Source of the DNA: an uncultured Eubacteriales bacterium
Lineage (GTDB): Bacteria > Bacillota > Clostridia > Oscillospirales > Acutalibacteraceae
DNA length: 51,329 nt
NCBI GenBank assembly: GCA_900315715.1
Contig: ONAH01000040.1
Span: forward strand, 1-51,329
Reading direction: 5' to 3'
The position numbers and the translations under genes were made by a program. Shown piece by piece: positions 2,649-35,276 of the stretch (its first letter is position 1; each line of letters starts with the position of its first letter). A model generated the notes under the pieces. It saw only the letters and a list, made by a program, of their open reading frames with translations, had not been told where the DNA came from and made no database searches.

Positions 2649-2720
2649 ATATAATGTAAAATTTGGCGACTGAGTTGATAACAATTCGCCACAGTATAAA
2701 TATGGCAAGGAGTGAACGAA

Positions 2721-3119
2721 ATGTTAGAAAATCTGAAGCTTGGCTTCACCATTCTTCTGGCAGGTGTTGTGATCGTCTTTTGTGTTCTGATTTTGCTTAT
2801 TGGAATAATCAAGCTTTACAGTGAGCTTGTAGTTACAATACAGAACACATATAAGAAAAAGACGGCAAAGAAGAAGAAATCAGTCACGAGAGAAGACGTT
2901 GAGTCTCAGCCTGTAGTCAAACAGGAAGTGGTTACCGAAGCACCGGTTAAGTCAAACGATGATAGTGCAATACCTCTTGAGGTGATTGCAGCTATTGCGG
3001 CAGCAGTAGAGGTGGTGTTCGGTGAAGGCGCTGTGCAAATAAAATCGGTAAAAAGATCATCTAAAAGACGGTCAGCGTGGAAATCGGCCGGTGTGGCTGA
3101 AAATACCCGTTCTTTCTGA
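2721..3119 (+). CDS. OadG-family small membrane subunit of a Na+-translocating decarboxylase
   Basis: Start moved to the ATG at 2721, with AAGGAG at 2707-2712 and an 8-nt spacer. N-terminal TM LGFTILLAGVVIVFCVLILLIGII, a charged linker, and the C-terminal IPLEVIAAIAAAVEVVFG...IKSVKR typical of OadG-like proteins. Confidence 0.75.
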   Translation: MLENLKLGFTILLAGVVIVFCVLILLIGIIKLYSELVVTIQNTYKKKTAKKKKSVTREDVESQPVVKQEVVTEAPVKSNDDSAIPLEVIAAIAAAVEVVFGEGAVQIKSVKRSSKRRSAWKSAGVAENTRSF

Positions 3120-3144
3120 TTAAGACTAAAGGAGAAGTGGTATC

Positions 3145-4386
3145 GTGGATATTTTAACACAATTTTGGAATTCTGTCGTAGGAATAATTGAAGATTCTGC
3201 ATTCGGAACTCTTGACTGGCGTAATTATGTAATGATTCTAATATCATTTGTATTGATTTACCTTGCCATAAAAAAGCAGTATGAACCGCTTGTTCTGCTG
3301 CCAATCGCAGTAGGTATGTTACTTGTAAACCTTTGCCCTGCTATAGCATTGGGCGGTACAACGAATATGATTCCTTTTGATGAGTATGTCAAGGCTCACC
3401 CTGGGGAAACAATTAAGTATGCAATAACTGAACTCAACGGCATCAAGTATGTCAATGAACCACATTCCGGTGGATTGCTTTTCTATTTATATCAGGGTGT
3501 TAAGCTTGGAATATACCCTCCGCTTATATTTCTTGGTATTGGCGCTATGACCGACTTTGGTCCGCTTATTTCTAATCCTAAGAGTTTTATTTTGGGCGCG
3601 GCAGCTCAGATAGGTATTTTTATTACATTTATAGGCGCAATTATTTTGGGATTTACAACAAAAGAAGCCGGTGCAATCGGAATAATCGGAGGTGCTGACG
3701 GACCAACGGCAATATATGTAACGTCAATTCTTGCTCCCGATCTCTTAGGCCCGATTGCCGTTGCGGCATATTCTTATATGGCGCTTGTGCCGATTATTCA
3801 ACCGCCAATAATGAGGTTGCTTACTACAAAAAAGGAAAGACAGATAAAGATGACGCAGCTTCGCGGTGTATCAAAGCTTGAGAAAATTCTTTTCCCGATA
3901 ATAGTTACTGTTATTGTTGCTATTCTATTACCTGATGCTACAACTCTGGTGGGTATGCTGATGTTTGGAAACCTTATGAAAGAGTCAGGAGTTGTAGACA
4001 GAATTACCAATACTGCTAAAAATGAACTTATGAATATTATAACGATATTCCTTGGATTGTCTGTCGGATCAACAGCAACTGGTCAGATATTCCTTTCGTT
4101 AAGAACCATTGGCATAATATGCTTAGGTCTGTTTGCGTTCTGTATGGGAACATCGTTTGGTGTGCTTTTCGGTAAGATTATGTGCAAGGCAACAGGCGGT
4201 AAGGTTAACCCTCTCATAGGTTCGGCAGGTGTTTCGGCTGTTCCTATGGCTGCAAGAGTATCTCAGAAGGTTGGTCAGGAAGAGGATCCATCAAACTTCT
4301 TGCTTATGCATGCTATGGGTCCAAACGTTGCAGGTGTAGTTGGTTCTGCAGTTGCAGCAGGTGTACTTATAAGTATTCTTAAATAA
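3145..4386 (+). CDS. Na+-translocating decarboxylase beta subunit (OadB/GcdB/MmdB family)
   Basis: 413-aa polytopic membrane protein with the family-typical N-terminus ...DWRNYVMILISFVLIYLAIKKQYEPLVLLPIAVGMLLVNL and GGADGPTAIY. GTG start with AAAGGAG 10 nt upstream. Confidence 0.9.
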   Translation: MDILTQFWNSVVGIIEDSAFGTLDWRNYVMILISFVLIYLAIKKQYEPLVLLPIAVGMLLVNLCPAIALGGTTNMIPFDEYVKAHPGETIKYAITELNGIKYVNEPHSGGLLFYLYQGVKLGIYPPLIFLGIGAMTDFGPLISNPKSFILGAAAQIGIFITFIGAIILGFTTKEAGAIGIIGGADGPTAIYVTSILAPDLLGPIAVAAYSYMALVPIIQPPIMRLLTTKKERQIKMTQLRGVSKLEKILFPIIVTVIVAILLPDATTLVGMLMFGNLMKESGVVDRITNTAKNELMNIITIFLGLSVGSTATGQIFLSLRTIGIICLGLFAFCMGTSFGVLFGKIMCKATGGKVNPLIGSAGVSAVPMAARVSQKVGQEEDPSNFLLMHAMGPNVAGVVGSAVAAGVLISILK

Positions 4387-4392
4387 TTTGGG

Positions 4393-4431
4393 TGGCTTGG
4401 TACCGGCTGGTACCGGGCCATTTTTTATTTT
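4393..4431 (+). terminator. Strong rho-independent terminator
   Basis: 12-bp stem TGGCTTGGTACC / GGTACCGGGCCA, loop GGCT, then TTTTTTATTTT. It begins 7 nt after the oadB-like stop. Confidence 0.8.
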
Positions 4432-4532
4432 AAAAACAATTGTAATATATGGCAAGGAGATATATATGTAAATAAAAGGTAAAATAGTAGTAAACAATCA
4501 AGGCGAAAATCGGCGATTTTTATATAAAATGC

Positions 4533-4561
4533 TTGCATTTTAGTTATGTGTATGATATTAT
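4533..4561 (+). promoter_or_regulatory. Putative promoter of the kinase operon
   Basis: TTGCAT (4533-4538), 17-nt spacer, TATTAT (4556-4561). Confidence 0.35.
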
Positions 4562-4624
4562 TATCTTAATAATATGTTTCTCTTGTGGAAATGAATAATA
4601 GATTTTTATGCAACTTTATAAAAA

Positions 4625-7393
4625 ATGTTAATGAAAGGGAGCGTAAATGTGCCTAAGGATGAAAAGTATCCTCTTGCCTTGCCGAAAGGAACCATACTTG
4701 CAGGACAGTATGTTATCGAAAGAGTATTGGGACAGGGCGGTTTCGGAATTACATATAAAGCCAGTGATTATAAGAATAATAATAAGCCGGTAGCTATCAA
4801 GGAGTATTTTCCCGATACATTAGTTTACAGAGAGATGACAACGGTTATATCCTATCCCGGCGAACGAACAGAAAATTTTGATTATGGAAAACAAAGTTTT
4901 CTTGATGAAGCGGAAACACTTGCAAAATTTCTTGGAAACGATAACATAGTTCGTGTATATTCGTATTTTGAGGAGAACGGAACTGCATATTTTGCGATGG
5001 AATATGTAGAAGGAATACCTTTTGATAAATATCTTACCCAAAAAGGCGGAAGAATAGGGATAGATGAAGCAAAGAATATTCTAATACCGGTAATGGATGC
5101 TTTAGGCGCAGTGCATAGTACGGGTATCATACACCGTGATGTAACTCCGGATAATATTTATTTATCTAATGACGGACGTGTAATGCTGCTTGACTTCGGC
5201 GCTGCAAGATATAGCCTGGGCGATAAAAGCAGAAGCCTTGATGTTGTTTTGAAACATGGCTTTGCTCCAAAGGAACAGTATTCAAGGAGAGGTAAGCAGG
5301 GCCCATATACAGATGTTTATGCTTTGGGCGCAACTTTTTATTTTGCTCTTACTGGAAAAAGGCCTCCGGATTCTATTGAGAGAATGGACGAAGACGACCT
5401 CATACCGCCACATAACTTGGGCGTGAATATTACTGAGTATCAGGAGGAAGCAATTCTTAAGGCTTTGAATGTACAGCCTTCTGAGAGATTTCAGACAATG
5501 GCTGAGTTTAAGAGTGTACTGTTAAATGAGAATAGAGGCACCTTTGGAGGAGCAACAAATGTGATAAATTTCTCTACTCCTGCAACACAGTATCAACAGT
5601 CTCAACTACCTCAACAGCCTAAGCAACCTCAGTTTCAGCAGATGCAGCAGCCTCAGTGGAAGAATACACCTCCTATACCTCCGCAAGGATATCCAAATCA
5701 AATGCAGCAGAATATGCCCTACCAGAGTGATAACTCAGTAAATGAGTTGAAAAACGCTCTAATTAACACAGGTGCTGCGACTAAAAAAGCGTTAGTATCT
5801 GCTGCAGCAAACGTAAAAGGCAAGGTGGAATTGCAGAAACAGAAAAAGTCAAATTCTGCGCAGCCTCAGTATATGCCGCCGCAGAGTATGAGTCAGCCAA
5901 TGTATCAGGTACCTGGTTCGCTGCAAAATCCTGCATCTCAGCGAAATATATCTCAAATGCCGGTAGTGACAGGCACAAATATGCAACCTCCACAAAAACT
6001 CACGCTTGAGAAAAACAGTCCGGTACAACAGTCGCAACAATCACAAAATGATAATATACCTATGCGTACTATCGCTCCTCAACATACAGGAAATACAGGT
6101 TTAAATGTTTCCGGGGCTCCTGTACAACCGATACAGCCCATAAACAACGGTCAGATAACACCGCCGCCTGTCTATCAGACTCCTCAGAAACCTAAGAATA
6201 AAGGTTTGATTGTTGGAATTGCAGCAGCTTGTGTAGTAGTGGGTTTGACAGTTGCGTTGGCTGCAAATCATTCATCTAAGAAAGTAAAAGATGTTAATCA
6301 TAACAATATCAGCAGTTCTGTAACAGCTTCAAGCGAAATTTATAAAGACGAAGTATCTTCTTCAATAGAGTATAGCACTCCAATAAATAATGAGTCGGTA
6401 GTGTCGTCGAACAGTTCGTTTACAGCATCAAAGACTTCTTACAGTAAGAGTGAACTTCAGATTGTTGGCAATTCACCTGCAAATCTAAAAAACTATGGCT
6501 ACTATACCTCAGACGGTACAAATAAGTTTTGGGCAGATGAGGACGGTCATGCTTTAATGTCCAATATAAGCGGAAAGAAATATCTGTATCAAAATCAAAC
6601 TGGTATCTTTAATTGTTTATCGTATGTTGACGATATACTGTACTTTATATATGACGGTCAGGCTTATTCTATGGACATGTCAAGTGATTCGGATGCAGAG
6701 TTGATTTCGTCGTTGAAGAGCTACTCAAGTATTAATAAAATCTTTGTATCATCGGCATTTTTCTTTATATATCAGGATAATACACTTTACAGAATAAACA
6801 GAGAAACCGGTTTAATGGAACAATCTATAAAAATAGATTATGCAGACGACTTTACATTTTATGACGGTTGGCTATATTATATAGCCGATGATAATAATGG
6901 AGAATCAGCTATATTCAGAGTGTCCGAGAGTGATTTTACCGACTATGGAGAGTATTATCTACATAGAGAAGAAGGATACTATTCATCTCCTGTAATAGTT
7001 GACGGAGTATTGTATTCGTTTGTTATTATGGATGAAGAAACTGATATTCTATGTGCAAATCCAAAGCTGGACACATCTGATCTAAAAACTTGGAATATTA
7101 CAACATATACAAAAAAAGATTATGCTGTAAATTTAAACGTAATAGGTGACAATATATTCTTTGCTGTATATAAAGAAAACGATGATAGTTACAGCCTATA
7201 TCATTTTGTCAAGAAGTCAAGCAATACTTATACATGTAAGACGCTTACAGATGTGTCGGCGATGTATCCTGCGGTTAGTATGCAGGACAGTGATTATAAG
7301 GTAAATTATATGGCATATGACTCAGATAAAGATCAGTTTATTAACAAATTTATAATATACGATCATACAACAAATGCGCAGAAAGAATCTTAA
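4625..7393 (+). CDS. Hanks-type Ser/Thr protein kinase, single-pass membrane protein with a Gln/Pro-rich linker and a beta-propeller-like (DUF5050-like) ectodomain; no PASTA repeats
   Basis: Kinase motifs GQGGFG, VAIKEY, HRDVTPDN, DFGAAR, APKE. The Q/P-rich low-complexity segment spans about nt 5525-6200. TM GLIVGIAAACVVVGLTVALAA is at nt 6203-6268. The C-terminal region has repeated aromatic/Asp-Gly strands (ILYFIYDGQAY, TLYRINRETG, WLYYIADDNNGESAIFRV, VLYSFVIMDE). An alternative in-frame GTG start at 4649 has a GGGAG RBS. Confidence 0.9.
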   Translation: MLMKGSVNVPKDEKYPLALPKGTILAGQYVIERVLGQGGFGITYKASDYKNNNKPVAIKEYFPDTLVYREMTTVISYPGERTENFDYGKQSFLDEAETLAKFLGNDNIVRVYSYFEENGTAYFAMEYVEGIPFDKYLTQKGGRIGIDEAKNILIPVMDALGAVHSTGIIHRDVTPDNIYLSNDGRVMLLDFGAARYSLGDKSRSLDVVLKHGFAPKEQYSRRGKQGPYTDVYALGATFYFALTGKRPPDSIERMDEDDLIPPHNLGVNITEYQEEAILKALNVQPSERFQTMAEFKSVLLNENRGTFGGATNVINFSTPATQYQQSQLPQQPKQPQFQQMQQPQWKNTPPIPPQGYPNQMQQNMPYQSDNSVNELKNALINTGAATKKALVSAAANVKGKVELQKQKKSNSAQPQYMPPQSMSQPMYQVPGSLQNPASQRNISQMPVVTGTNMQPPQKLTLEKNSPVQQSQQSQNDNIPMRTIAPQHTGNTGLNVSGAPVQPIQPINNGQITPPPVYQTPQKPKNKGLIVGIAAACVVVGLTVALAANHSSKKVKDVNHNNISSSVTASSEIYKDEVSSSIEYSTPINNESVVSSNSSFTASKTSYSKSELQIVGNSPANLKNYGYYTSDGTNKFWADEDGHALMSNISGKKYLYQNQTGIFNCLSYVDDILYFIYDGQAYSMDMSSDSDAELISSLKSYSSINKIFVSSAFFFIYQDNTLYRINRETGLMEQSIKIDYADDFTFYDGWLYYIADDNNGESAIFRVSESDFTDYGEYYLHREEGYYSSPVIVDGVLYSFVIMDEETDILCANPKLDTSDLKTWNITTYTKKDYAVNLNVIGDNIFFAVYKENDDSYSLYHFVKKSSNTYTCKTLTDVSAMYPAVSMQDSDYKVNYMAYDSDKDQFINKFIIYDHTTNAQKES

Positions 7394-7405
7394 GGAGGAA
7401 TAATA

Positions 7406-8077
7406 ATGGCAATTCAGGAATGTGGAAACGGACATCTTTATGATACAGACCAGCATGCAAGGTGTCCGTATTGTCAGGGAGGCGGAAATCGAATTAACTT
7501 TGGAGGACCAAATTTTGGAGCTCCATCGTTTGGAGGTGTGAATAACAGTTCCGATATAGGCAAGACAGTCGGAGCAGGAGTACAGTTCCCACAACCAAGC
7601 TATCAGCCTCAGGAGGAAATAGGTGCGACTGTCGCTCCATCTGATTACAGAAACAGTCGCAGGGAAGACGATGCAGGTAAAACGGTTGGTGTATTCCAGA
7701 AAAACAAGCAGTTTGAGCCGGTTGTAGGTTGGATAGTATGTATCGAAGGAGCGAATAAAGGAAAGGATTACAGGTTATTTGCAAAGACAAACACTGTTGG
7801 CAGAACCGAGAAAAATGATATTTGCATAAAGGGAGATGATACGATTTCCAGAGAAAAGCATGCAAAAATTGATTATGACGAGAAGCATAATGGATATTAT
7901 CTTATTCCTGCAGAAGCAACAAATACAATATATATAAACGACAAACCTGTATATCAGCCTACTGAGCTATTACACTATGATGTAATAGAACTTGGAGAGG
8001 GCAAGTTTATCTTTATACCATTGTGTACAAAGCAGTTTGACTGGAATACAGGACTTGATACAGGTTTGAACATATGA
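7406..8077 (+). CDS. Zinc-ribbon plus FHA domain protein
   Basis: N-terminal CGNGH...CPYC, then a Gly/Pro-rich linker and a C-terminal FHA core (VGR...ISREKHA...TNTIYIN). AAGGAGG RBS. 12 nt after the kinase stop. Confidence 0.9.
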   Translation: MAIQECGNGHLYDTDQHARCPYCQGGGNRINFGGPNFGAPSFGGVNNSSDIGKTVGAGVQFPQPSYQPQEEIGATVAPSDYRNSRREDDAGKTVGVFQKNKQFEPVVGWIVCIEGANKGKDYRLFAKTNTVGRTEKNDICIKGDDTISREKHAKIDYDEKHNGYYLIPAEATNTIYINDKPVYQPTELLHYDVIELGEGKFIFIPLCTKQFDWNTGLDTGLNI

Positions 8078-8895
8078 TGTGGTTCAAAAGCAGAAAAAAG
8101 AAAAAAGATATTACTGTTGATCCTGCCCTCACTGTTTCAGACAAATTAAGATATAAGGTTGCGAATTTGCAGGGAGTTGGAGCAAGGCAGAGGCAAGAGG
8201 ATTCATTTACACTGATGAATGCTCTTGACGAAGCTCAGTATGACGAGTACGGACTGATGTTCGCAGTATGTGACGGTATGGGAGGCATGAAGGACGGAAA
8301 GCTTGCCAGCGAAACGGCCATTGCGAGTTTTAGACGTTTTTTTAGCGAAATGGACAGACGTGGAAGGATTGCCGAACAACTGAAGCAAAGTGTATTCACA
8401 GCGTCTGAGGAAGTAGAAAACCTGCTAGAAGGTGAAGGTGGAAGTACGGTTGTTGTTGGTATTATATATCATGAACAGCTCTATTTTGCAAGTGTTGGAG
8501 ACAGCTTTTTTTACTTGAAAAGAGACGGGAAACTCTATCGCCTTAATACAGAGCATAATGTTTGCCATGAACGTTATTTGGAGAATATAAGGGATGGTGT
8601 ATTTGATCCTTTGGAATGTCGTAATGATCCGGAAGCTTCGGCACTGTCACAGTTTTTGGGAATGAATGGACTAACAAAGGTAGATTGTTCGGTACGTCCT
8701 ATGCAACTGAGGAAAGGAGATGTCCTTTTGGCATGCTCTGATGGAGTAGGTGGTGTGCTGAGTGAATCAGAGATATTCAATGCATTATGTTACGAGTCAG
8801 GTGAGCAGGCATGTCGTGAGCTTGAACAGCGATTGATAGAACATTCAAAACCAAATCAAGATAACTATACTGCATTGTTAGTACAATGTCAGTAA
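8074..8895 (+). CDS. PP2C-family Ser/Thr protein phosphatase
   Basis: Motifs RQEDSF, FAVCDGMGG, ASVGDSFFY, ACSDGV, DNYTALLV. The start ATG overlaps the upstream stop (ATGA at 8074-8077). Confidence 0.9.
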   Translation: MMWFKSRKKKKDITVDPALTVSDKLRYKVANLQGVGARQRQEDSFTLMNALDEAQYDEYGLMFAVCDGMGGMKDGKLASETAIASFRRFFSEMDRRGRIAEQLKQSVFTASEEVENLLEGEGGSTVVVGIIYHEQLYFASVGDSFFYLKRDGKLYRLNTEHNVCHERYLENIRDGVFDPLECRNDPEASALSQFLGMNGLTKVDCSVRPMQLRKGDVLLACSDGVGGVLSESEIFNALCYESGEQACRELEQRLIEHSKPNQDNYTALLVQCQ

Positions 8896-8920
8896 ATAAA
8901 AAGAATGAGAGGAACATATT

Positions 8921-10297
8921 ATGAGAACAAAAATATTGCGAGTATCAACGTTGTTTTTGATGTCGCTTACGTTATTGTTTGCAAGTATTGCAGGTTCAAC
9001 GACGGCATACGCTTTTGACAATGACGTAAAAAGCGGTGTAGTACCGGTAGTATTCTATTTAAAGGGTGCAGAAGTTTATCTTACAGACGGAACTAACTAC
9101 CAGTTGTATCAAACGTTGGGCGACTGTGAGTGGAGCGGTGGATCAGGATTCTTTGTAGGTGACGGTTCGGGTTCGGCACAGTACATTGTTACAAACGCAC
9201 ATGTTGTAGAAGATTATGTAAATGCAAAAGAAGGCGAGCAGTTTGCTACTCTTTACGGATATACAGATGAGGGTTATGGCATAGTAATATATGCTACAAG
9301 CTGTGAACTCAGAGTGTATTATTCTCAGGATGATTATGAAGCAGCGTATGTAGATTGTATAGGAGATTCGGATAAGGTTGACTTAGCCGTACTCAGACTC
9401 AGAGATCCCACTAATAAACGACATACTCTATCGTTAATGGAAACAAATGAAAAAATGGTTGGTGACACCGTTTATACAGTAGGTTTTCCGGGAAATGCAG
9501 ATAATCAGTTTACAAGTGCAAGCCATTACGGTGTGAATGATGTTACTGTACATAAGGGTTCCATCACAAAGTTTGCAGTAAACGAAGGAAAAGGCGTAGA
9601 GAGAATCGCAGTAGACGCAACTATACAGCATGGAAACTCAGGCGGACCGCTTGTAACAGAGGACGGTAAGGTAATAGGTGTTAATACAAATGTTGAGTCA
9701 AATGTTAAGTATGGAACACAGGTAGAGGTTGACTATTACGCAATAAACTCAAATGAGATTATGAGATTCCTTGATAAGAATAACATTCCATATCAGAAAG
9801 CTACAGGCGGTATTAAATTAGACGGCAAGACTCTAGGAATAATAGGAGGTGCAGTTGTAGTAATAGGCGCAGTAGTTGCAGTAATAATAGTTATGAGCAA
9901 GAAAAAGGGTAATGGTATGCGTAATCCTAATATGCAGAGCGGAATGCCGGGCATGGCACCGGGCGGCAACCTCAGAGGTGTAGTTCGTTCAATGTCTGCA
10001 CAGCATAACGGGCAGACTTTCCCTGTTGGAAATGCACCGCTCATGATAGGCAGGGATCCAACAACATGTCAGATAGTGTTCGCAAAGGATACGACAGGTG
10101 TTAGCGGAAAGCACTGTACTGTTTACTTTGACGCTGCAGCCGGTAGCTTTACTTTGACAGATATCGGATCAACATATGGAACATACCTGAGCAACGGATT
10201 GAAACTAACTCCACATACTCCGGTAAGCATTAAGCCGGGCGATACATTCTGTGTCGGGGATAAGGCTAATATTCTTAAAGTGGAAGTGATGCAGTAA
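8921..10297 (+). CDS. Membrane-anchored trypsin-like (S1/Trypsin_2) serine protease with a C-terminal cytoplasmic FHA domain
   Basis: Signal peptide ...ASIAGSTTAYA. Triad motifs TNAHVV, DLAVLRL, GNSGGPL. TM LGIIGGAVVVIGAVVAVIIVM (nt 9833-9895) is followed by SKKKGNGMR. FHA core MIGR...VSGKHC...STYGTYLSNG. Confidence 0.9.
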   Translation: MRTKILRVSTLFLMSLTLLFASIAGSTTAYAFDNDVKSGVVPVVFYLKGAEVYLTDGTNYQLYQTLGDCEWSGGSGFFVGDGSGSAQYIVTNAHVVEDYVNAKEGEQFATLYGYTDEGYGIVIYATSCELRVYYSQDDYEAAYVDCIGDSDKVDLAVLRLRDPTNKRHTLSLMETNEKMVGDTVYTVGFPGNADNQFTSASHYGVNDVTVHKGSITKFAVNEGKGVERIAVDATIQHGNSGGPLVTEDGKVIGVNTNVESNVKYGTQVEVDYYAINSNEIMRFLDKNNIPYQKATGGIKLDGKTLGIIGGAVVVIGAVVAVIIVMSKKKGNGMRNPNMQSGMPGMAPGGNLRGVVRSMSAQHNGQTFPVGNAPLMIGRDPTTCQIVFAKDTTGVSGKHCTVYFDAAAGSFTLTDIGSTYGTYLSNGLKLTPHTPVSIKPGDTFCVGDKANILKVEVMQ

Positions 10298-11023
10298 ATG
10301 TTGTTTGATGTTTTTGAGTATTCAAACAAAGGCGGACGCAACTACAATGAAGATTCCATGGGATGCAGTTTTGGAGAAGACAGCGGAATATTTGTTGTTG
10401 CAGACGGATTAGGCGGTCACTCTTTAGGAGATTTAGCGTCTGATACTGCAGTGGAAGTATTGACGTTTGATGATTGGATAGATCGTGCAGAAGATGTGTC
10501 TGAATTACTTACGGCAAAGATTGCTGAGGCGAATAATGCAATAATAGAACTTCAAAAGAAGAATAATGTTGTAATGAAAACTACCGTAGCTGTTGTAGCA
10601 GTATATGGAGAGAATGCGGTATGGGCTAATGTAGGAGATTCAAGAGTCTATTTCATACATGATAATATGATACACTCCTATACCGATGATCATTCTGTTG
10701 CATACAAGAAGTATAAAGCAGGAGAGATTAGTCGTGAACAGCTTGCAACAGATGAAGATCAGTCACAACTGCTGAGGACGCTTGGAAGTGTAGAACGCAG
10801 TGAACCAACAGTTTATCAGGCTGATGTCCTGTTGAAGCCTGGAGATGCGTTTTTCATATGTTCTGACGGTGCATGGGAATTTCTATTAGATGAGGAGATT
10901 GTAATTGATTTTCTCAAAGCAGAGAATGCTAAGCATTGGGCTGAAATGCTATTAGTACGAATGATGGAACGAGTAAACGGCGGTAATGATAATTTGACTA
11001 TTATGACAGTTATATTAGGTTAA
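10298..11023 (+). CDS. PP2C-family Ser/Thr protein phosphatase (second copy)
   Basis: Motifs YNEDS, VVADGLGGH, ANVGDSRVY, ICSDGAWE, NDNLTIMTV. The ATG abuts the upstream TAA (TAAATG at 10295-10300). Confidence 0.9.
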   Translation: MLFDVFEYSNKGGRNYNEDSMGCSFGEDSGIFVVADGLGGHSLGDLASDTAVEVLTFDDWIDRAEDVSELLTAKIAEANNAIIELQKKNNVVMKTTVAVVAVYGENAVWANVGDSRVYFIHDNMIHSYTDDHSVAYKKYKAGEISREQLATDEDQSQLLRTLGSVERSEPTVYQADVLLKPGDAFFICSDGAWEFLLDEEIVIDFLKAENAKHWAEMLLVRMMERVNGGNDNLTIMTVILG

Positions 11024-11030
11024 TGAGATG

Positions 11031-11067
11031 AAGCCACGGGTTTAAAAATCCATGGCTTTATCTTTTG
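11031..11067 (+). terminator. Probable terminator of the kinase operon
   Basis: Stem AAGCCACGG / CCATGGCTT (one mismatch) followed by TATCTTTTG. It starts 8 nt after the stop. Confidence 0.5.
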
Positions 11068-11446
11068 ATTAATTTGTATATGGTTGATTGTTATATTAAA
11101 AGCAATTGTAGTGATTGTCAATAAATGACAAATTTGTTGTTAGAAAATAATAATATTGTATGATATAATAAATAATATATCAGTATAATATCGAATATAC
11201 AATATAGCTTATGAAGTTGCATGAGCTGTTAAGATTTTTGATAATTATAAGCAACAGGATAACAGATTGTACGTTTTAAAAATTATATACTTGACTATGG
11301 TATGAAAAGAGGGTGCTTACGGCATGTTGAAAAACAAATTGTCGCAAGCTGAACAGAAAAGTCTTTACGGTGCAGCCATTTTTTACAAGTATTTGTTTGC
11401 AGCGGCAGATAAGACACTCATACATGTACAAGAATAACATACAAAT

Positions 11447-11490
11447 GATTTCCCGAAGCTGTAACATTTGCTTCGGGAATCAGGTTTTGG
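11447..11490 (+). terminator. Hairpin (terminator or attenuator) in the leader of the PPP phosphatase gene
   Basis: 11-bp stem GATT(T)CCCGAAG / CTTCGGGAATC with one bulge and a 12-nt loop, then AGGTTTTGG. It ends about 25 nt before the RBS of 11512. Confidence 0.35.
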
Positions 11491-11511
11491 AAATAATAAC
11501 AGGAGGTAAAA

Positions 11512-12228
11512 ATGGCTACATATGTAATATCTGATATACATGGCATGTATGATAAGTTTACAGAAATGCTTGAAATAATTAACCTAAAAAACGATGACAC
11601 ACTATATATACTTGGAGATGTATTTGACAGAGGGCCTGAGCCGATAAAAGTATTACTAAAGCTTATGGAGATGCCAAATGTGAGAATGCTTCGTGGAAAC
11701 CATGAGGAAATGGCTCTAAAATGTCTGCCAACACTGTTAGAGGAGATAACAGAGATTTCGATTGCCGCACTTGACGATGTGTTTATAAACGATTTGCTTA
11801 TCTGGCAAATGAACGGAAATCAGTCAACACTTGATGAATTTTACATTTTGGAAAACGACACAAAGAATAAGGTTTTGGAATATCTCAGAAACACTATATT
11901 ATTTAAAGAATTGATAGTCAATGATACAGAGTATTTGCTGGTACATGCAGGACTGGGTAATTTTTCGCCTGATAAGGTATTAGGTACATATACGGTAAAT
12001 GAGCTTGTGTGGGAACGCGCAGATTATGAGAAACAGTATTTTGAAGATAAGTATCTTGTTACGGGACACACACCAACGCAGACAATAGATTGCTGTGAGA
12101 ACCCGGGCTACATATACCGCAACAAAAATCATATTGCGATAGACTGTGGAGCGTGTTTCAAAACTGGTAGACTTGCTGCAATTTGTCTTGAAACGGGAGA
12201 AGAATTCTATACGTCGGAAACAGAATAA
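11512..12228 (+). CDS. PPP-family metallophosphoesterase (PrpA/lambda-phosphatase-like Ser/Thr phosphatase)
   Basis: Motifs SDIHG, GDVFDRG, GNHEEM, VHAG, GHTP. AGGAGG RBS. Confidence 0.85.
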   Translation: MATYVISDIHGMYDKFTEMLEIINLKNDDTLYILGDVFDRGPEPIKVLLKLMEMPNVRMLRGNHEEMALKCLPTLLEEITEISIAALDDVFINDLLIWQMNGNQSTLDEFYILENDTKNKVLEYLRNTILFKELIVNDTEYLLVHAGLGNFSPDKVLGTYTVNELVWERADYEKQYFEDKYLVTGHTPTQTIDCCENPGYIYRNKNHIAIDCGACFKTGRLAAICLETGEEFYTSETE

Positions 12229-13141: not shown

Positions 13142-15091
13142 ATGAAAATCGGGGAATTGTTTGATATAAATAATTATTATGTAGGTATAGAAATGATTGG
13201 AAGAAATAATAACAATTGTTATTTAATGTCAGATGTTCAGTTTGAAGAAATGAAGGAGTTTTACAAAAAGCTTGGATACAGTCCGCTTCAGGTAAAGGTG
13301 TTATCAGAACGTTGTTTTGGAAACAAGATTGTTGCAAAGAAAAACTATCCGTACAATGATGATTGGTGTTTTTCATTACAGAATGATTTTGATATGCCGT
13401 TTCCAAGTAAGCTATTTAAAAATCTACCCTCTCAGTATGCTGTTAGATATTGTCCTCCTATGAGTGGTTCTGCAATAAATACAGAGATGTCTCAAATGCA
13501 GGCTAAATCACTAGTTTCTTGTGATATGTCTGCTCCGATTGGTCTGTCTGATTCTGCTGATTCGTCTGATATGCCGGATTTTTCTTTTTTAGATTCTGCT
13601 GAGACCGATGGTCATTTCACAGTATATAGAAAAAACAATGTAGGTCGAAGCAAAAAGATGAATTTGTTTGAAGATTCCGAAGCTATGACTGAGGGTGTTT
13701 CGGAGACTTTTAGTACAGCGGAAACTCATGTAAATGATGAAAACGAAACCCATAGTCCAATGGATAATCCGCAGGCGATTTTCTCTGCTAATGTGAACAC
13801 AGCTTCGTGGGATTATCTCAGAGGCAAGATAGAACAGAAGAGCTGTCCCGATAAGTCATTTGTGAGAGTTGAGGAGATAATCAATTCATATGTGTATGAT
13901 TTTCCGAAGCCGGAAAATGACGAATTATTCTCACTCTCAGCCGAAACAAGTAAGTGTGCATGGAATCCTGATGCAGAGCTTATGCTTGTTGGAATGAGGG
14001 CAAAAGAAGTAAATGTTGATGTTAAGCAAAATCTTGTGTTTCTGATAGATGTATCGGGAAGTATGGAAGATCAGTGGATATTAGTACAGATGTCACTTGC
14101 CGCTATAATAAGCAGAATGAAAGAAAACGATGTTCTGTCGATCATTACATATAGTAATAAAACTACTGTTGTAAAAACCGAACTAAACGGCGGCGATAAG
14201 GCAAAATGTGTAGATGCGTTAATATCGATAGAAGGAATAGGCGGCTGTACAAGGGGAAGCGAAGGACTTGAACAGGCATATAAATTCTTGCAGGATAAAT
14301 ATGACAAAAACGCAAATAACCGTGTCTTTATATTTACAGACGGTGATTTTAACTTTGGAATAACAAGTGAAGGCGAACTGAAAGATTTTATATACAAGAA
14401 GAGAGAAAGCGGGATTTATCTATCAATTGTGGGCTATGGATATGGTAACTTTAAGGATGATAAAATGGAAACGCTTGCATACAACGGTAACGGAAACTAC
14501 ACCTTTGTGTCAAATCCATACGATATCTATGACAACCTTTGCGATAAGCTTATCTCAAACCTTGTGACTGTTGCAAAGGATGTCAAAATATCAGTTGAAT
14601 TAAATCCGGTCTATGTCAGCAGTTACAGACTTATAGGATATGAATTCAGAGCACTGACTCAGCAGGAATTTCACGATACAAAGAAGGCAACAGACGGAAT
14701 AGGCTCAGGACATAATGTAGTTGCCCTAATAGAGTTTACAAGAGGAAAGGCACAGGAACAGTTCTCCTCACGATATGTTACAAGTAATGTAAAGGAACAT
14801 ACGGATGAGTTTGCGTTTATAGAGGTGCATTACAAATCTACTGATGATGAAAACCTTACAGCTACGAAGAGTATTTCGGTAAAGGAGATAGAGAATTCTC
14901 AAACGGATAACATCAAGATAGCACAGTTTTTAGCAGCGTTTGGTCTTTGCGTGATTGATTCAAAGTATAAGGGAAAAGCAGACAAAAATATGCTTTCTGA
15001 GATGCTAAGGGAATTTGAAAGAAGCGGAAAATACGATATGAATAAAAAATATTCGCACTTTGATGTTATAAGAAAATTTATTCAGCGATAA
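13142..15091 (+). CDS. von Willebrand factor A domain protein, YfbK-like (vWA plus DUF3520-like C-terminus), no signal peptide
   Basis: MIDAS motif LVFLIDVSGSM. An upstream vWA-associated segment NVNTASWDYLRGKI...VRVEEIINSY. C-terminal VKISVELNP...YRLIGYEFR. The start is uncertain: the ATG at 13142 has no RBS and lies in the loop of hairpin 13134-13157. In-frame ATGs further downstream (MIGRNNNN, MSDVQFEEM) are alternative starts. Confidence 0.75.
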   Translation: MKIGELFDINNYYVGIEMIGRNNNNCYLMSDVQFEEMKEFYKKLGYSPLQVKVLSERCFGNKIVAKKNYPYNDDWCFSLQNDFDMPFPSKLFKNLPSQYAVRYCPPMSGSAINTEMSQMQAKSLVSCDMSAPIGLSDSADSSDMPDFSFLDSAETDGHFTVYRKNNVGRSKKMNLFEDSEAMTEGVSETFSTAETHVNDENETHSPMDNPQAIFSANVNTASWDYLRGKIEQKSCPDKSFVRVEEIINSYVYDFPKPENDELFSLSAETSKCAWNPDAELMLVGMRAKEVNVDVKQNLVFLIDVSGSMEDQWILVQMSLAAIISRMKENDVLSIITYSNKTTVVKTELNGGDKAKCVDALISIEGIGGCTRGSEGLEQAYKFLQDKYDKNANNRVFIFTDGDFNFGITSEGELKDFIYKKRESGIYLSIVGYGYGNFKDDKMETLAYNGNGNYTFVSNPYDIYDNLCDKLISNLVTVAKDVKISVELNPVYVSSYRLIGYEFRALTQQEFHDTKKATDGIGSGHNVVALIEFTRGKAQEQFSSRYVTSNVKEHTDEFAFIEVHYKSTDDENLTATKSISVKEIENSQTDNIKIAQFLAAFGLCVIDSKYKGKADKNMLSEMLREFERSGKYDMNKKYSHFDVIRKFIQR

Positions 15092-18556: not shown

Positions 18557-18708
18557 TAATTATCCCTTTTTACAAAAAATTTTCTCTAAATTTGGGTATT
18601 TATTTTGTAATGAACTGTTGATTATATTTTATTTTGTGGTAAAATAATTTAAGAGGCTTTTATATTAAATAATTGCGTATATATATTTTGATCGAAGGGA
18701 TCATGTTT

Positions 18709-19596
18709 ATGGATGCAGTTCATCAGTTTTTTGAGACTTTTCTTGCCGTAATCAGAACATTTCGCTTTAAAGACGCAGTAGATATTACGGCAATAGCTTT
18801 AATAATATATTACCTTATCAAGCTTGTTAAAGAAACACGTGCAGTTCAGCTTGTAAAGGGTATTCTTGTACTAATAGTTCTTTATGGAATAGCGTTTGTT
18901 TTTCAGTTGACGATGCTTACTGCAATGCTCAGTAAATTTTTTGAATTTGCTGTACTGGTACTGTTTATAGTATTTCAGCCTGAAATACGTAAGGTACTTG
19001 AACAGCTTGGACGAAGTAATTATACATATAAAAGACTGCGAAAGGTATTTACAGAATCAGACACTGCGTCCGATATACTTAGACAAAAGAGAAATATAGC
19101 TGTTTTTGTAGATGCAATAATGCAGCTTCACGAAAAGAAAACAGGTGCACTTATTGTGTTTGAAAGAACTACTATGCTGGGTGATATAGCATATACAGGT
19201 ACAACACTGAACGCTTCGCCGTCTGTTATGCTGATAGGAAATATATTTTATAACAAAGCTCCGTTGCATGACGGTGCAATGATTGTGCGTGACTTTAATA
19301 TCTATGCGGCAGGCTGCATACTTCCGCTTACTCATAATGAGGGTGTAGATGATAATCTTGGTACAAGACATCGTGCAGCATTGGGCATGAGTGAGGAGTC
19401 AGATGCAGTAATAGTTGTTGTTTCGGAGGAAACAGGTTCAGTATCGATAGCACTTAACGGAGAGCTTACCAGAGATTATACAAGAGAAACTCTAACTAAT
19501 CAATTACATAAGCTTCTTATCGCAGATGAGGAGGAACAGTCAGAAAAGTTTTCGTTCCGCCCTGCTTCGAGAAAGGAGAAGAAAAAGAATGAGTGA
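18709..19596 (+). CDS. cdaA: Diadenylate cyclase CdaA (membrane-anchored DAC domain)
   Basis: Three N-terminal TM segments. DAC motifs GALIV, PLHDGAMIV, GTRHRAALG, VVVSEETG. The ATG at 18709 is 8 nt after GAAGGGA; the ATG at 18703 is also possible. Confidence 0.9.
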   Translation: MDAVHQFFETFLAVIRTFRFKDAVDITAIALIIYYLIKLVKETRAVQLVKGILVLIVLYGIAFVFQLTMLTAMLSKFFEFAVLVLFIVFQPEIRKVLEQLGRSNYTYKRLRKVFTESDTASDILRQKRNIAVFVDAIMQLHEKKTGALIVFERTTMLGDIAYTGTTLNASPSVMLIGNIFYNKAPLHDGAMIVRDFNIYAAGCILPLTHNEGVDDNLGTRHRAALGMSEESDAVIVVVSEETGSVSIALNGELTRDYTRETLTNQLHKLLIADEEEQSEKFSFRPASRKEKKKNE

Positions 19597-20974
19597 CGAA
19601 AAGAAGAAAAAGATAAAACTAAAAAAAAGAAAAACTACGTTGTCATCTCTTTTTAATGATAACAGATTTTTAATGATATTTTCACTGGTTATGGCGTTTA
19701 TAATATGGGTAGGAGTATCTGCCGACAGCGGTGAAACAGGAAATTATCCTATTACGGATATACCGGTGGTGATGGATCTTTCAGAAGACGCAGAAAACGA
19801 TAATCTCAATGTTGTATCAATCGACGGAGTCCCGGTAGATGAATTTACGGCGACAGTACGTGTAAAGGGAAACAATGTTACAGTAGGTTCTTTGACAAAA
19901 TCAGATATTCAAGTATATGGAGCTAATCTTGGAAACATCGTAACATCAGGTACATATACAGTTACGTTGCTTGCAAAACAGGTTGGAATTAAGAATAATT
20001 ATGATATAGTTTCGCTTAATCCTTCTGAAGTAACGGTTGTGGTAGATAGAAATATTATAAAAGAGTTTACCTTGGAAAGTATGATCGAAGCGTCAGCACC
20101 ATCTGATTACTACAAGGGAAATCCTGATTTTTCTGTAAAGACGGTATCGGTATCAGGTCCTGAACAGAGTGTTCAGAAGGTGGCTAAGGCTGTGGTGTCA
20201 TATAAAGCAGAGAAGGAACTGACTTCAACTACCGTCCTTAAAGGCTTACATGTGGATCTGTTAGATGAGAACGGAGATGTTATTGAAGACGATGCACTTA
20301 CAACAGATCCGGTAGAAGTAGATGTGACAATTCCTGTGTTGGTGAAGAAGAAAGTACCTGTTACGCTGATATGTGAGAACAAGCCTGAGGGACTAAACAT
20401 GGATGAGTTCGTGTCTATTGAACCGTCTGAAATAGAGATAGCCGGAAGTTCAGATGTAATAGATACTGTAAGCAGTATTAATATAGGACCATTGAATTTC
20501 AATGAGTTATCGTATGGAAAGGCACTTTTGGATTATGAAGTGACTATGCCTGAAGGTATAAGAAATCTTAACAATATTGAAAAAGCTATGGTGAAGTTTG
20601 ATTATACAAAGTTTTCAGTTAGGTCATTTACTGTAACTTCATTTAAATTTGAAAATGTTCCGGAAGGACTGGTTGCAGAATATTCACCATACAGTAATGT
20701 TATAGTTAGGGTGATAGGGCCTAAGAATGAAATTTCAGACATGACTTCATCCGATATATTATCGGTGATAGATCTTACAGGTGAAACTATCGGAAATACT
20801 GACGTAAACCTGAATATTTCTGTATTAAATCATCCATCATGCTGGGTATATGGTTCATATCAGCTAAATGTTACTGTAAGCGATGCGTCCACGGTTTCGT
20901 CACAGTCAAATACGGATACGTCGTCTAACCGGAATAACAGTAGCAGAACAGACGATACGGATAGAATAGAATAA
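19589..20974 (+). CDS. cdaR: CdaR / YbbR-domain regulator of CdaA
   Basis: The ATG at 19589 overlaps the cdaA stop by 8 nt. Lys-rich N-terminus, one TM, repeated YbbR-like beta-rich modules, Ser/Thr-rich tail. Confidence 0.85.
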   Translation: MSDEKKKKIKLKKRKTTLSSLFNDNRFLMIFSLVMAFIIWVGVSADSGETGNYPITDIPVVMDLSEDAENDNLNVVSIDGVPVDEFTATVRVKGNNVTVGSLTKSDIQVYGANLGNIVTSGTYTVTLLAKQVGIKNNYDIVSLNPSEVTVVVDRNIIKEFTLESMIEASAPSDYYKGNPDFSVKTVSVSGPEQSVQKVAKAVVSYKAEKELTSTTVLKGLHVDLLDENGDVIEDDALTTDPVEVDVTIPVLVKKKVPVTLICENKPEGLNMDEFVSIEPSEIEIAGSSDVIDTVSSINIGPLNFNELSYGKALLDYEVTMPEGIRNLNNIEKAMVKFDYTKFSVRSFTVTSFKFENVPEGLVAEYSPYSNVIVRVIGPKNEISDMTSSDILSVIDLTGETIGNTDVNLNISVLNHPSCWVYGSYQLNVTVSDASTVSSQSNTDTSSNRNNSSRTDDTDRIE

Positions 20975-20981
20975 CGGAAAG

Positions 20982-21016
20982 TGCCGACAGAAAGAATAGT
21001 CTGTCGGCATATTTCT
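20982..21016 (+). terminator. Rho-independent terminator
   Basis: Perfect 9-bp stem TGCCGACAG / CTGTCGGCA followed by TATTTCT. Confidence 0.75.
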
Positions 21017-21208
21017 ATAAAAATAGAAATAATATGTAAAAATACGGATAAAAATGCAAAAAAATTATGTTTTATGTGTTGCAATTTTTGTCAAGTGGTG
21101 ATACAATAATATAATTATAAAGATTTACTATTAAGCAATTACATCAACAGTGTCTCAAAAATGCATATATTCTTACAGTAATCAGTAAATGCAGAAAGGA
21201 AGGACATA

Positions 21209-23245: not shown

Positions 23246-23293
23246 GTAGCGGTTAAGATATAGATAAAGTTTTAAGGAAAGGTGTGTTTTTCT

Positions 23294-35200: not shown

Positions 35201-35276
35201 GGGAGCATAGCTCAGCTGGGAGAGCATCTGCCTTACAAGCAGAGGGTCACAGGTTCGAGCCCTGTTGTTCCCACCA
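35201..35276 (+). tRNA. tRNA-Val (anticodon TAC), CCA encoded
   Basis: Cloverleaf read by hand. Acceptor GGGAGCA/TGTTCCC, D arm GCTC-AGCTGGGA-GAGC, anticodon stem TCTGC/GCAGA with loop CTTACAA, T arm ACAGG-TTCGAGC-CCTGT, discriminator A plus CCA. Confidence 0.95.

Follow-up and report, generated by a model that had tools for sequence, protein, structure and literature searches.

A conserved, putative five-gene operon of Clostridia joins a PpkA-type kinase, FHA proteins and two PP2C phosphatases to a predicted surface protease

What does a phosphothreonine switch control when its genetic partner is a protease predicted to face the outside of the cell? Five consecutive genes at positions 4625–11023 (+ strand) of contig ONAH01000040.1 (assembly GCA_900315715.1), from an uncultured Eubacteriales bacterium of the Acutalibacteraceae, raise this question; the whole stretch of 51,329 nt is called the window here. 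In order, they encode a Hanks kinase, a Zn-ribbon-FHA adaptor, a PP2C phosphatase (PP2C-A), a trypsin-like protease with an FHA tail (protease-FHA) and a second PP2C phosphatase (PP2C-B). Here we document the gene structure, domain content, predicted topology and conservation of this unit. We hold with middling confidence that it would be a membrane-associated phosphothreonine module of the PpkA/PP2C/FHA kind, coupled in a Gram-positive to a different output.

The layout of the five genes supports a single operon, a compact and conserved phospho-signalling unit. The kinase (4625–7393; 922 aa from ATG 4625) is predicted to be a single-pass transmembrane protein of PpkA type, the adaptor (7406–8077; 223 aa) cytoplasmic, PP2C-A (8074–8895; 273 aa) a PPM phosphatase with a polybasic N-terminus, protease-FHA (8921–10297; 458 aa) a type I membrane protein and PP2C-B (10298–11023; 241 aa) a soluble Stp1-like PPM phosphatase. 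The argument for one operon rests on gaps of 12, −4, 25 and 0 nt, on two junctions with ribosome-binding sites and on flanking terminators. The kinase stop codon TAA is followed by GGAGGAATAATA and ATG 7406, a 12-nt gap with a GGAGGA ribosome-binding site; adaptor and PP2C-A overlap by ATGA (8074–8077); a 25-nt gap containing GAGAGGAA precedes ATG 8921; and protease-FHA abuts PP2C-B in TAAATG (10295–10300). Upstream, an intrinsic terminator (4390–4433, + strand; a 15-pair stem at 4390–4423 with 7 GC pairs, then the T-run TTTTATTTT) closes the preceding oxaloacetate-decarboxylase genes, of which that for the beta subunit is the last, and forms the 5′ boundary. Downstream, a terminator-like hairpin (11025–11068, + strand) folds at 11025–11064 with −21.6 kcal/mol (z = −4.65; 0/200 shuffles fold as well) and is followed by a U-rich tract. 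The + strand of the interior holds only two weak 5-pair terminator-like sites (5352 and 10133), and the eight such sites found in a scan of a 9-kb stretch are within chance (5.2 ± 2.9 expected). An earlier, first-pass annotation of this DNA had proposed these genes and junctions, a strong terminator before them, a hairpin after them and none within; the open reading frames (ORFs), the junction sequences and the flanking structures all bear this out. Pfam likewise returns the expected Pkinase, FHA, PP2C, Trypsin_2 plus FHA, and PP2C_2 for the five proteins.

Other features of the locus concern its start and composition. The kinase probably begins at GTG 4649 and not at ATG 4625, because AAAGGGAG lies at 4634–4641, 7 nt upstream, and homologues begin MxxDExYPLALP. 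In the AT-rich leader of 190 nt (4434–4624), nothing that a sigma-70 scan picked up on the + strand was convincing as a promoter, and the pair TTGCAT and TATGAT there has a spacer of only 12 nt. Rfam has no match inside or around the operon, the 490-nt gap downstream included, and the GC content of the operon is similar to that of the window (0.399 vs. 0.378).

The five genes recur together well beyond the window. Relatives of the protease occur in 193 stretches among 185,579 species-representative genomes, so the module is patchy and not universal in Clostridia; we examined the best 80 of the 193 and assigned components by phmmer tabulation. All five components are found together in 54 species-representative genomes, spanning Ruminococcus, Lachnospiraceae, Oscillospiraceae, Negativibacillus, Allofournierella and one Binatia metagenome-assembled genome (MAG), and because the same components recur in so many the arrangement is far beyond chance. 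The window order, kinase-adaptor-PP2C-A-protease-PP2C-B, is kept at 32 loci, of which some also have another kinase or a further FHA gene. Ten further loci have adaptor-PP2C-A-protease-PP2C-B, with a contig end, a kinase split in two ORFs or (three loci) no adjacent kinase. Median intergenic gaps across loci are 1–22 nt, and identities to the window proteins co-vary (r = 0.72–0.96) down to 29–47%. Thus the order recurs across Clostridia, and co-occurrence is not confined to close relatives; it is such confinement that the first-pass annotation had named as fatal to its proposal.

By sequence, the kinase is of the PpkA type, the kinase type of the threonine-phosphorylation pathway of type VI secretion systems (T6SS). 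It matches Pfam Pkinase (E = 3.6e-31; 108.9 bits, cut-off 31.7), and hydropathy and an AlphaFold model (full-length kinase, with database homologues as the alignment) place the kinase domain, aa 1–300, in the cytoplasm. The assignment to PpkA follows from its best solved relative and from an unusual catalytic loop shared with it. The best PDB match is the N-terminal domain of PpkA (5hnv; E = 1e-50, 176 bits, residues 19–299) and the next is StkP (E = 3e-23, 86 bits), with StkP, PknB and PknA at 75–86 bits; the NCBIfam model PknB_PASTA_kin is not reached (147, cut-off 450). The loop reads HRDVT174PDN, with the canonical Ser/Thr-kinase Lys replaced by Thr, and this position is Thr, Ser or Ala in about 79/82 cluster kinases; the PpkA loop, HRDISLDN, is likewise without Lys. 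The remaining residues are kept (K59, E95, D172, N177 and D190), and GQGGFG, VAIK59, E95, HRD172, N177 and D190FG hardly vary across the family. The earlier statement that the catalytic motifs are intact therefore holds for the β3 Lys, αC Glu, HRD Asp, Asn and DFG, and fails for the catalytic-loop Lys. A pseudokinase is ruled out by the three-residue criterion for such proteins (PMC12599244), as the kinase has the β3 Lys and the Asp of both HRD and DFG. The activation loop, DKSRSLDV, contains Ser and no Thr, and therefore the docking sites for FHA domains must be elsewhere.

Outside the catalytic domain, the kinase is predicted to consist of a long disordered linker, one membrane helix and an unusual ectodomain. 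The juxtamembrane linker (aa 305–525; 5537–6199, + strand, as are all features within the operon) is Gln/Pro-rich, with 41 Q and 31 P in 280 aa, and is predicted to be disordered (predicted local distance difference test, pLDDT, about 30). The transmembrane helix (aa 527–548; 6203–6268) has a hydropathy peak of 2.71 and appears in the model as helix 531–546. A Ser-rich stalk of about 55 residues then leads to the putative extracellular domain (aa 605–920; 6437–7384), modelled at pLDDT of about 90 as all-beta and propeller-like, with about seven four-stranded repeats counted. This domain has no Pfam match, VWA included, and DUF5050 (PF16472), which the first-pass annotation had expected here, is absent even at E ≤ 1. 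Used alone as a query, the ectodomain brought up no homologues, and just 38 relatives, 21 of them kinases, emerged when 1.84 billion (1.84e9) representative proteins were searched exhaustively. DUF5050 is matched above threshold by 5/38 of these relatives, and the homologous ectodomain at locus L057, which phmmer aligns to that of the window at 1.5e-13, scores 38.3 bits (cut-off 27). What remains of the DUF5050 assignment is a putative distant relationship, transitive through relatives only. Ectodomains vary among loci, with propeller, TPR and CarboxypepD_reg-like types. At L041 (3394–8374), a kinase domain about 70% identical to that of the window is joined to TPR repeats and a CarboxypepD_reg-like domain and not to a propeller.

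The adaptor combines a putative zinc ribbon, a Thr-rich linker and a canonical FHA domain. The FHA domain (aa about 106–210; Pfam E = 2e-12, 47.8 bits) is GarA/OdhI-like and, aligned to these proteins, keeps VGR, SREKH (SxxH) and TN. The N-terminus has the pattern C6-x3-H10-x9-C20-x2-C23 (MAxxEC.NGHxYD......CPYC), whose C/H/C/C ligands are conserved in most of 56 homologues, and no Pfam zinc-ribbon model matches the first 100 aa. Hydropathy shows no hydrophobic segment in the adaptor or in either PP2C. Between ribbon and FHA domain lie three Thr motifs (7565–7684), IGK-T54-VGA, IGA-T75-VAP and AGK-T93-VGV, and T54, T75 and T93 are candidates both for accepting phosphate and for docking an FHA domain. 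The pattern G[KASR]T[VI][AGDSM], which was defined post hoc on sequences already seen, occurs 9.2 times per 1000 aa in the 56 Zn-ribbon-FHA proteins and 0.05 times in 1176 other ORFs, a difference of about 180-fold. At least one copy is present in 43/56 adaptors, typically two or three and up to six, and some adaptors carry five or six near-perfect repeats, for example LDYGATVMPQGF.

Two characterized proteins suggest what such a linker could do. The adaptor FHA aligns best to GarA/OdhI, and a Thr motif stands about 15 residues before the FHA domain as in the GarA self-binding switch. The mycobacterial transporter Rv1747 (FHA-linker-FHA) has a multi-Thr disordered linker together with FHA, an arrangement that permits multivalent clustering. 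Unlike these proteins, the adaptor has no link to a metabolic enzyme or an ABC transporter, carries a putative Zn ribbon and has G-K/A-T-V in place of ETTS.

The protease-FHA protein is predicted to span the membrane, with the protease domain outside and the FHA domain inside. Pfam identifies Trypsin_2 (7.3e-23) and FHA (2.2e-13, 50.9 bits). A signal peptide (aa 1–31, ending in AYA before FD) precedes the protease domain (aa 32–300), whose triad of H94, D154 and S240 is invariant in 20 homologues; by hydropathy, a transmembrane helix follows at aa 305–327, then KKK and the cytoplasmic FHA domain (aa 352–458). In an AlphaFold2 model (mean pLDDT 77.9), the best Foldseek matches are HtrA1, DegS and Deg1 (E ~ 1e-12; TM-score ~0.7 normalised to the target), and the sequence too resembles HtrA/DegS/Deg1. 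The protein has no PDZ match, the helix and FHA domain coming after the protease domain, and it scores 66.9 against degP_htrA_DO (NCBIfam cut-off 416), so that it is HtrA-like in fold and lies outside the family by the PDZ criterion and the NCBIfam cut-offs. It shares with HtrA, DegP and DegS (S1C) the fold, the catalytic triad and an extracytoplasmic active site, and DegS is signal-activated. It differs from them in a cleavable signal peptide with a C-terminal membrane anchor, where theirs is N-terminal, and in having as its sole accessory domain an FHA domain across the membrane. MarP and the mycosin MycP are topological analogues.

In the FHA tail, 20 homologues all keep G377, R378, S395 and H398, which include the phosphate-contacting Arg, Ser and His. 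The GR...S..H...N signature first ascribed to both FHA domains of the operon is thus complete in the adaptor and reduced to GR and SxxH in the protease, where the Asn has become Tyr. PDB matches of this domain include ArnA (5a8i), a weak match (E = 1.3e-3). The architecture is common, with 925 database clusters at 90% identity (E ≤ 1e-5); the top 120 all have Trypsin_2 and FHA and carry generic names at most. The idea that the kinase is partnered by a membrane-anchored ectoprotease with a cytoplasmic FHA domain, and that FHA and PP2C modules are duplicated, applies across the family.

The two phosphatases form distinct paralogue families, each with metal-binding motifs conserved in 63–65 homologues. 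PP2C-A (Pfam PP2C, E = 2.2e-10) has RQEDS, DGMGG, GDS, SDG and QDN; PP2C-B (Pfam PP2C_2, E = 2.1e-14) has NEDS, DGLGGH, GDSR, SDG and NDN, and its best PDB match is Stp1 (2pk0, E = 7e-24). The DG(M/L)GG and downstream Asp motifs seen by the first-pass annotation are therefore a property of both families. Both proteins score below the cut-off of the NCBIfam Stp1/IreP model (NF033484, 230 bits), at 156.8 bits for PP2C-B and 106.5 for PP2C-A. The N-terminus of PP2C-A is polybasic (MMWFKSRKKKK in the window, MxWFKKKKK in the family), and in variant loci a hydrophobic stretch, read as a predicted membrane helix, replaces it; these two kinds of N-terminus suggest that PP2C-A acts at the membrane.

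Variant loci suggest a theme wider than the protease itself. At 21 Lachnospiraceae loci, a sixth recurrent gene directly after PP2C-B, which the window is without, encodes a secreted vWA protein with a transmembrane helix and a cytoplasmic FHA domain (for example L041:12378–14360 and L045:7434–9158). About 15 Oscillospirales, including the isolate Negativibacillus massiliensis, have the re-ordered arrangement FHA-adaptor-PP2C-A-PP2C-B-protease-kinase-kinase, which begins with a DUF805 membrane protein fused to FHA. Since vWA-FHA and DUF805-FHA proteins also recur, the recurring theme, as judged from sequence, is a PpkA-type kinase with a Thr-rich FHA adaptor and a pair of PP2Cs, surrounded by FHA-tailed membrane proteins. 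Many loci have two tandem kinases, and a third gene order is found in Roseburia and Robinsoniella. In a Candidatus Binatia MAG (L074:4798–10366), the order is PP2C-protease-FHA-FHA-kinase-kinase with a protease 37% identical to that of the window, which could be either an independent assembly or a lateral transfer of the same theme. No other family recurs within 10 kb on either side of 74 related loci, including RodA/FtsW, penicillin-binding proteins (PBPs), T6SS and the type VII secretion system (T7SS).

Several observations on individual loci complement this survey. N. massiliensis (L065:6673–15768) and the loci L060–L072 contain DUF805-FHA, the adaptor, a PP2C-A with a hydrophobic start, PP2C-B, protease-FHA and two kinases. 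The kinases of re-ordered loci are one of 359 aa without the hydrophobic C-terminal part and one of 1188 aa that starts with a zinc-ribbon-like CPYC...CPRC. Near the protease gene, five Ruminococcus-type MAGs (L008, L010, L011, L013 and L055) encode a conserved protein of some 300 aa that is secreted; its gene lies on the opposite strand in the loci inspected.

How might these parts work together? The first-pass annotation had suggested a kinase-gated, phosphothreonine-dependent assembly that would link a surface sensor to extracellular proteolysis, and the explanation that we favour, control from the inside out, would be a form of it. The single-pass kinase would read an extracellular cue through its propeller-like ectodomain and phosphorylate the G-K/A-T-V threonines of the adaptor linker, and perhaps also its own disordered linker. 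The FHA tail of the protease, and likewise that of the vWA ectoprotein in Lachnospiraceae, would dock on these phosphothreonines, and docking would cluster or position the ectodomains beside the kinase. PP2C-A, at or near the membrane, and soluble PP2C-B would erase the phospho-marks. HtrA-type protease domains are active as trimers, and those with PDZ domains, such as DegS, are regulated through them. The protease here has no PDZ domain and its sole accessory domain lies across the membrane, and we therefore favour the idea that where it lies, or its oligomeric state, is controlled from within the cell; clustering from inside would be the likeliest switch for surface proteolysis. We tentatively propose, as a possibility falling short of an even chance, that phosphothreonine on a multivalent Zn-ribbon-FHA hub clusters FHA tails and so switches on the surface protease and, in Lachnospiraceae, the adhesin-like vWA protein, in a Gram-positive offshoot of the T6SS PpkA/Fha/PppA switch.

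The proposed ancestry draws on a close resemblance to the T6SS pathway (PpkA/PppA/Fha1-TagH) of Pseudomonas, Serratia and Agrobacterium. The kinase domain is closest to that of PpkA, with an HRD-x-S/T-x-D-N loop without Lys; the kinase is single-pass with an extracytoplasmic sensor; a dedicated FHA protein and a PP2C belong to the locus; and the logic would be that of phosphothreonine recruiting FHA to assemble a membrane complex. The operon differs in its Gram-positive host and in the lack of T6SS genes, whether in the window or recurrent within 10 kb. Its kinase ectodomain is propeller-like, whereas P. aeruginosa PpkA has a periplasmic vWA domain, and it has two PP2C paralogues that are not specifically PppA-like. 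Further, its adaptor has a putative Zn ribbon and repeated Thr motifs, and its FHA domains are also fused to ectoproteins (protease and vWA).

A second parallel is the ArnA/ArnB/ArnC,D/PP2A system of Sulfolobus, in which ArnA joins a zinc ribbon to FHA, ArnB is a vWA protein and ArnC and ArnD are kinases. The adaptor would share with ArnA its architecture, a putative N-terminal zinc ribbon (C/H/C/C pattern, without a Pfam model) plus FHA at the C-terminus; the Arn complex is phosphothreonine-dependent and reversed by a phosphatase, and the vWA partner in Lachnospiraceae loci echoes ArnB. In contrast, Arn is a cytoplasmic system of archaea for control of the archaellum and pili, has no protease and uses a PPP-type phosphatase in place of PP2C; and the Lachnospiraceae vWA partner is extracellular and itself FHA-tailed, and the window does not encode it. 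These cases also revise the first-pass view that kinase/FHA/PP2C operons are tied to cell-wall synthases or to the T6SS. The link to PpkA stands; the list was too narrow, as vWA-linked systems (ArnA/ArnB, and DRA0331–0334 and T7SS variants discussed below) exist.

A number of observations weigh against control from the inside out. The protease FHA has Tyr (STYGT) at the position of the canonical Asn, and Tyr or Phe is found there in 20/20 aligned homologues. The canonical Asn reads the peptide backbone; in the same alignment, the FHA domain of NIPP1 has His at this position. Under the strict pattern, 13/56 adaptors are without the Thr motif, Negativibacillus-type loci hold loose versions only, and the motif was chosen after the fact, the enrichment being nonetheless very large. 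The catalytic-loop Lys is missing, and the activity of the kinase here is assumed by analogy with PpkA, which is an active kinase. Nine loci hold the protease-FHA gene alone, of which at least five or six have flanks long enough to be real orphans; those without kinase, FHA or PP2C neighbours are L008, L013, L026, L028, L042 and L048. At L010 (8356–11983) and L015 (7552–11355) there is no adjacent kinase and PP2C-B is degenerate (DGLGG lost). The adaptors of these two loci have three to five near-perfect repeats of LDYGATV(A/M)PQG(Y/F). Finally, the direction of information flow is left unconstrained by the sequence.

Information could instead flow from the outside in, or in a feedback loop, an explanation that we regard as unlikely. 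The ectoprotease would then stand upstream of the kinase or act on it, by making its ligand or shedding its ectodomain, and the FHA domain would only tether. Such a role fits the variation of the kinase ectodomain beside a constant protease, as expected of a common processing enzyme for different sensors. Cleavage would have an accessible target in the Ser-rich stalk, about 55 residues long, and DegS-type HtrA proteases, to which the fold is matched here, initiate signals. The orphan protease-FHA genes and the loci without an adjacent kinase argue against this explanation too, and the sequence reveals no cleavage site.

A more doubtful explanation is a module for envelope or division homeostasis like the actinobacterial fhaA-fhaB-pstP-rodA-pbpA-pknA-pknB operon, with the protease as an HtrA-like quality-control enzyme localised by its FHA domain, for example to the septum. 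Both have two FHA proteins, a PP2C that is sometimes membrane-anchored, and one or two transmembrane Hanks kinases. Mycobacterial PstP is membrane-anchored, and PP2C-A of variant loci has a predicted membrane helix; many loci have the tandem kinases; and the best NCBIfam FHA match of both the adaptor and the protease FHA is FhaB/FipA, far below the cut-off of that model in each case. The setting is also compatible, as the window is otherwise housekeeping with MurJ-like, CdaA and RelA genes. However, RodA/FtsW, PBP and PASTA are absent from the window and do not recur in the 10 kb around the 74 loci, the kinase is PpkA-like and not PknB-like, and the module is patchy in Clostridia (193 stretches among the 185,579 species genomes). 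Here a second PP2C and an ectoprotease replace the wall synthases.

Alternatively, the operon might be the regulatory arm of a secretion or surface machine encoded elsewhere, for example a T7SS variant of Bacillota, with the protease in a role like that of MycP; this we consider improbable. The mycosin MycP has a signal peptide, an ectoprotease and a C-terminal transmembrane helix, the topology predicted for the protease here, and the kinase is of the type that gates the T6SS. Operons of kinase, FHA, PP2C and vWA genes, with push-pull control via FHA docking, are found as DRA0331–0334 of Deinococcus radiodurans (vWA; serine/threonine protein kinase; FHA; FHA-PP2C) and as the T7SSc-j clusters of Bacillota, in which genes for a kinase and a PPM phosphatase are often found with those for FHA and vWA proteins (PMC11217815). 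Unlike the operon, these sets have no protease or FHA-tailed ectoproteins, and the T7SS sets adjoin an EssC-like ATPase and WXG100 genes. The 51-kb window showed no gene for an FtsK/EssC-like ATPase, WXG100, the T6SS or other secretion functions, and no such family recurs near related loci, so that linkage in cis to a T7SS or T6SS is ruled out for the window and for 10 kb on either side of related loci. An anti-phage or conflict system, in which the kinase would sense infection and the protease be the effector, is very improbable: the PADLOC matches of the kinase domain (PD-T4-6 and mad6) and the trypsin domain (RT-Protease_XI and LmuA) are generic and far under system cut-offs (NCBIfam MAD6, 131 vs. 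460), the system-defining partner genes are absent, the protease domain is predicted to be extracellular, and the operon lies at similar GC content among housekeeping genes without mobile elements.

The surroundings of the operon show little that travels with it. The rest of the window encodes housekeeping functions (RelA/SpoT, RecJ, CdaA, DXS, RecN, exonuclease VII and a MurJ-like protein), and no mobile elements were seen. Genes for the gamma and beta subunits of oxaloacetate decarboxylase, a sodium-pump decarboxylase, lie directly upstream (2712–4386), a synteny found only in the closest relative (L001). A calcineurin-like metallophosphatase gene (11512–12228; Metallophos, with weak ApaH and PrpA/B-type matches) starts 490 nt after the operon and follows it at two other loci only (L002 and L003); this may mark a third phosphatase with ties to the module or reflect local synteny. 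The AT-rich interval before it (11069–11511, about 440 nt) has no + strand ORF of at least 60 aa, no Rfam match and several promoter-like sites; the metallophosphatase gene may have its untranslated leader or a regulatory region here. Two genes downstream of the operon, 13142–15091 encodes a YfbK-like vWA protein (vWF_A, VWA and YfbK_C, without FHA), different in type from the Lachnospiraceae vWA-FHA proteins; vWA proteins accompany kinase/FHA/PP2C modules elsewhere. Farther along, CdaA with a YbbR-domain (CdaR-like) partner and RelA/SpoT occupy 18673–25501, with RecJ between them (21209–23245), and a tRNA gene lies at 35201–35273.

In the full-text literature searched, which mostly leaves out subscription journals, neither a protease (HtrA/Trypsin)-transmembrane-FHA protein nor this operon is described, and we found no characterized system of this composition, as the first-pass annotation had supposed. 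Hanks kinase/FHA/PP2C modules are known as switches of wall synthesis, type VI secretion and archaeal motility. The operon is one more version of them, widely conserved among abundant Clostridia of rumen and gut, and its fixed partner is a predicted surface protease with its own putative cytoplasmic phosphothreonine reader. If the proposed mechanism holds, it would offer a route for regulating surface proteolysis from within, with adhesins, cell-wall enzymes, host or feed proteins and signalling peptides as possible targets, and it would show the PpkA-type switch re-used outside Gram-negative secretion, as a general device for assembling surface enzymes. Inside-out control, if true, would make this the first bacterial FHA domain to pass phosphorylation state across the membrane to an exo-enzyme. 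The proposal comes with defined candidate phosphosites (T54, T75 and T93) and positions for point mutants (R378 and S240). The operon also places in a functional setting hundreds of database entries that are now unnamed or named only "trypsin-like peptidase domain-containing protein".

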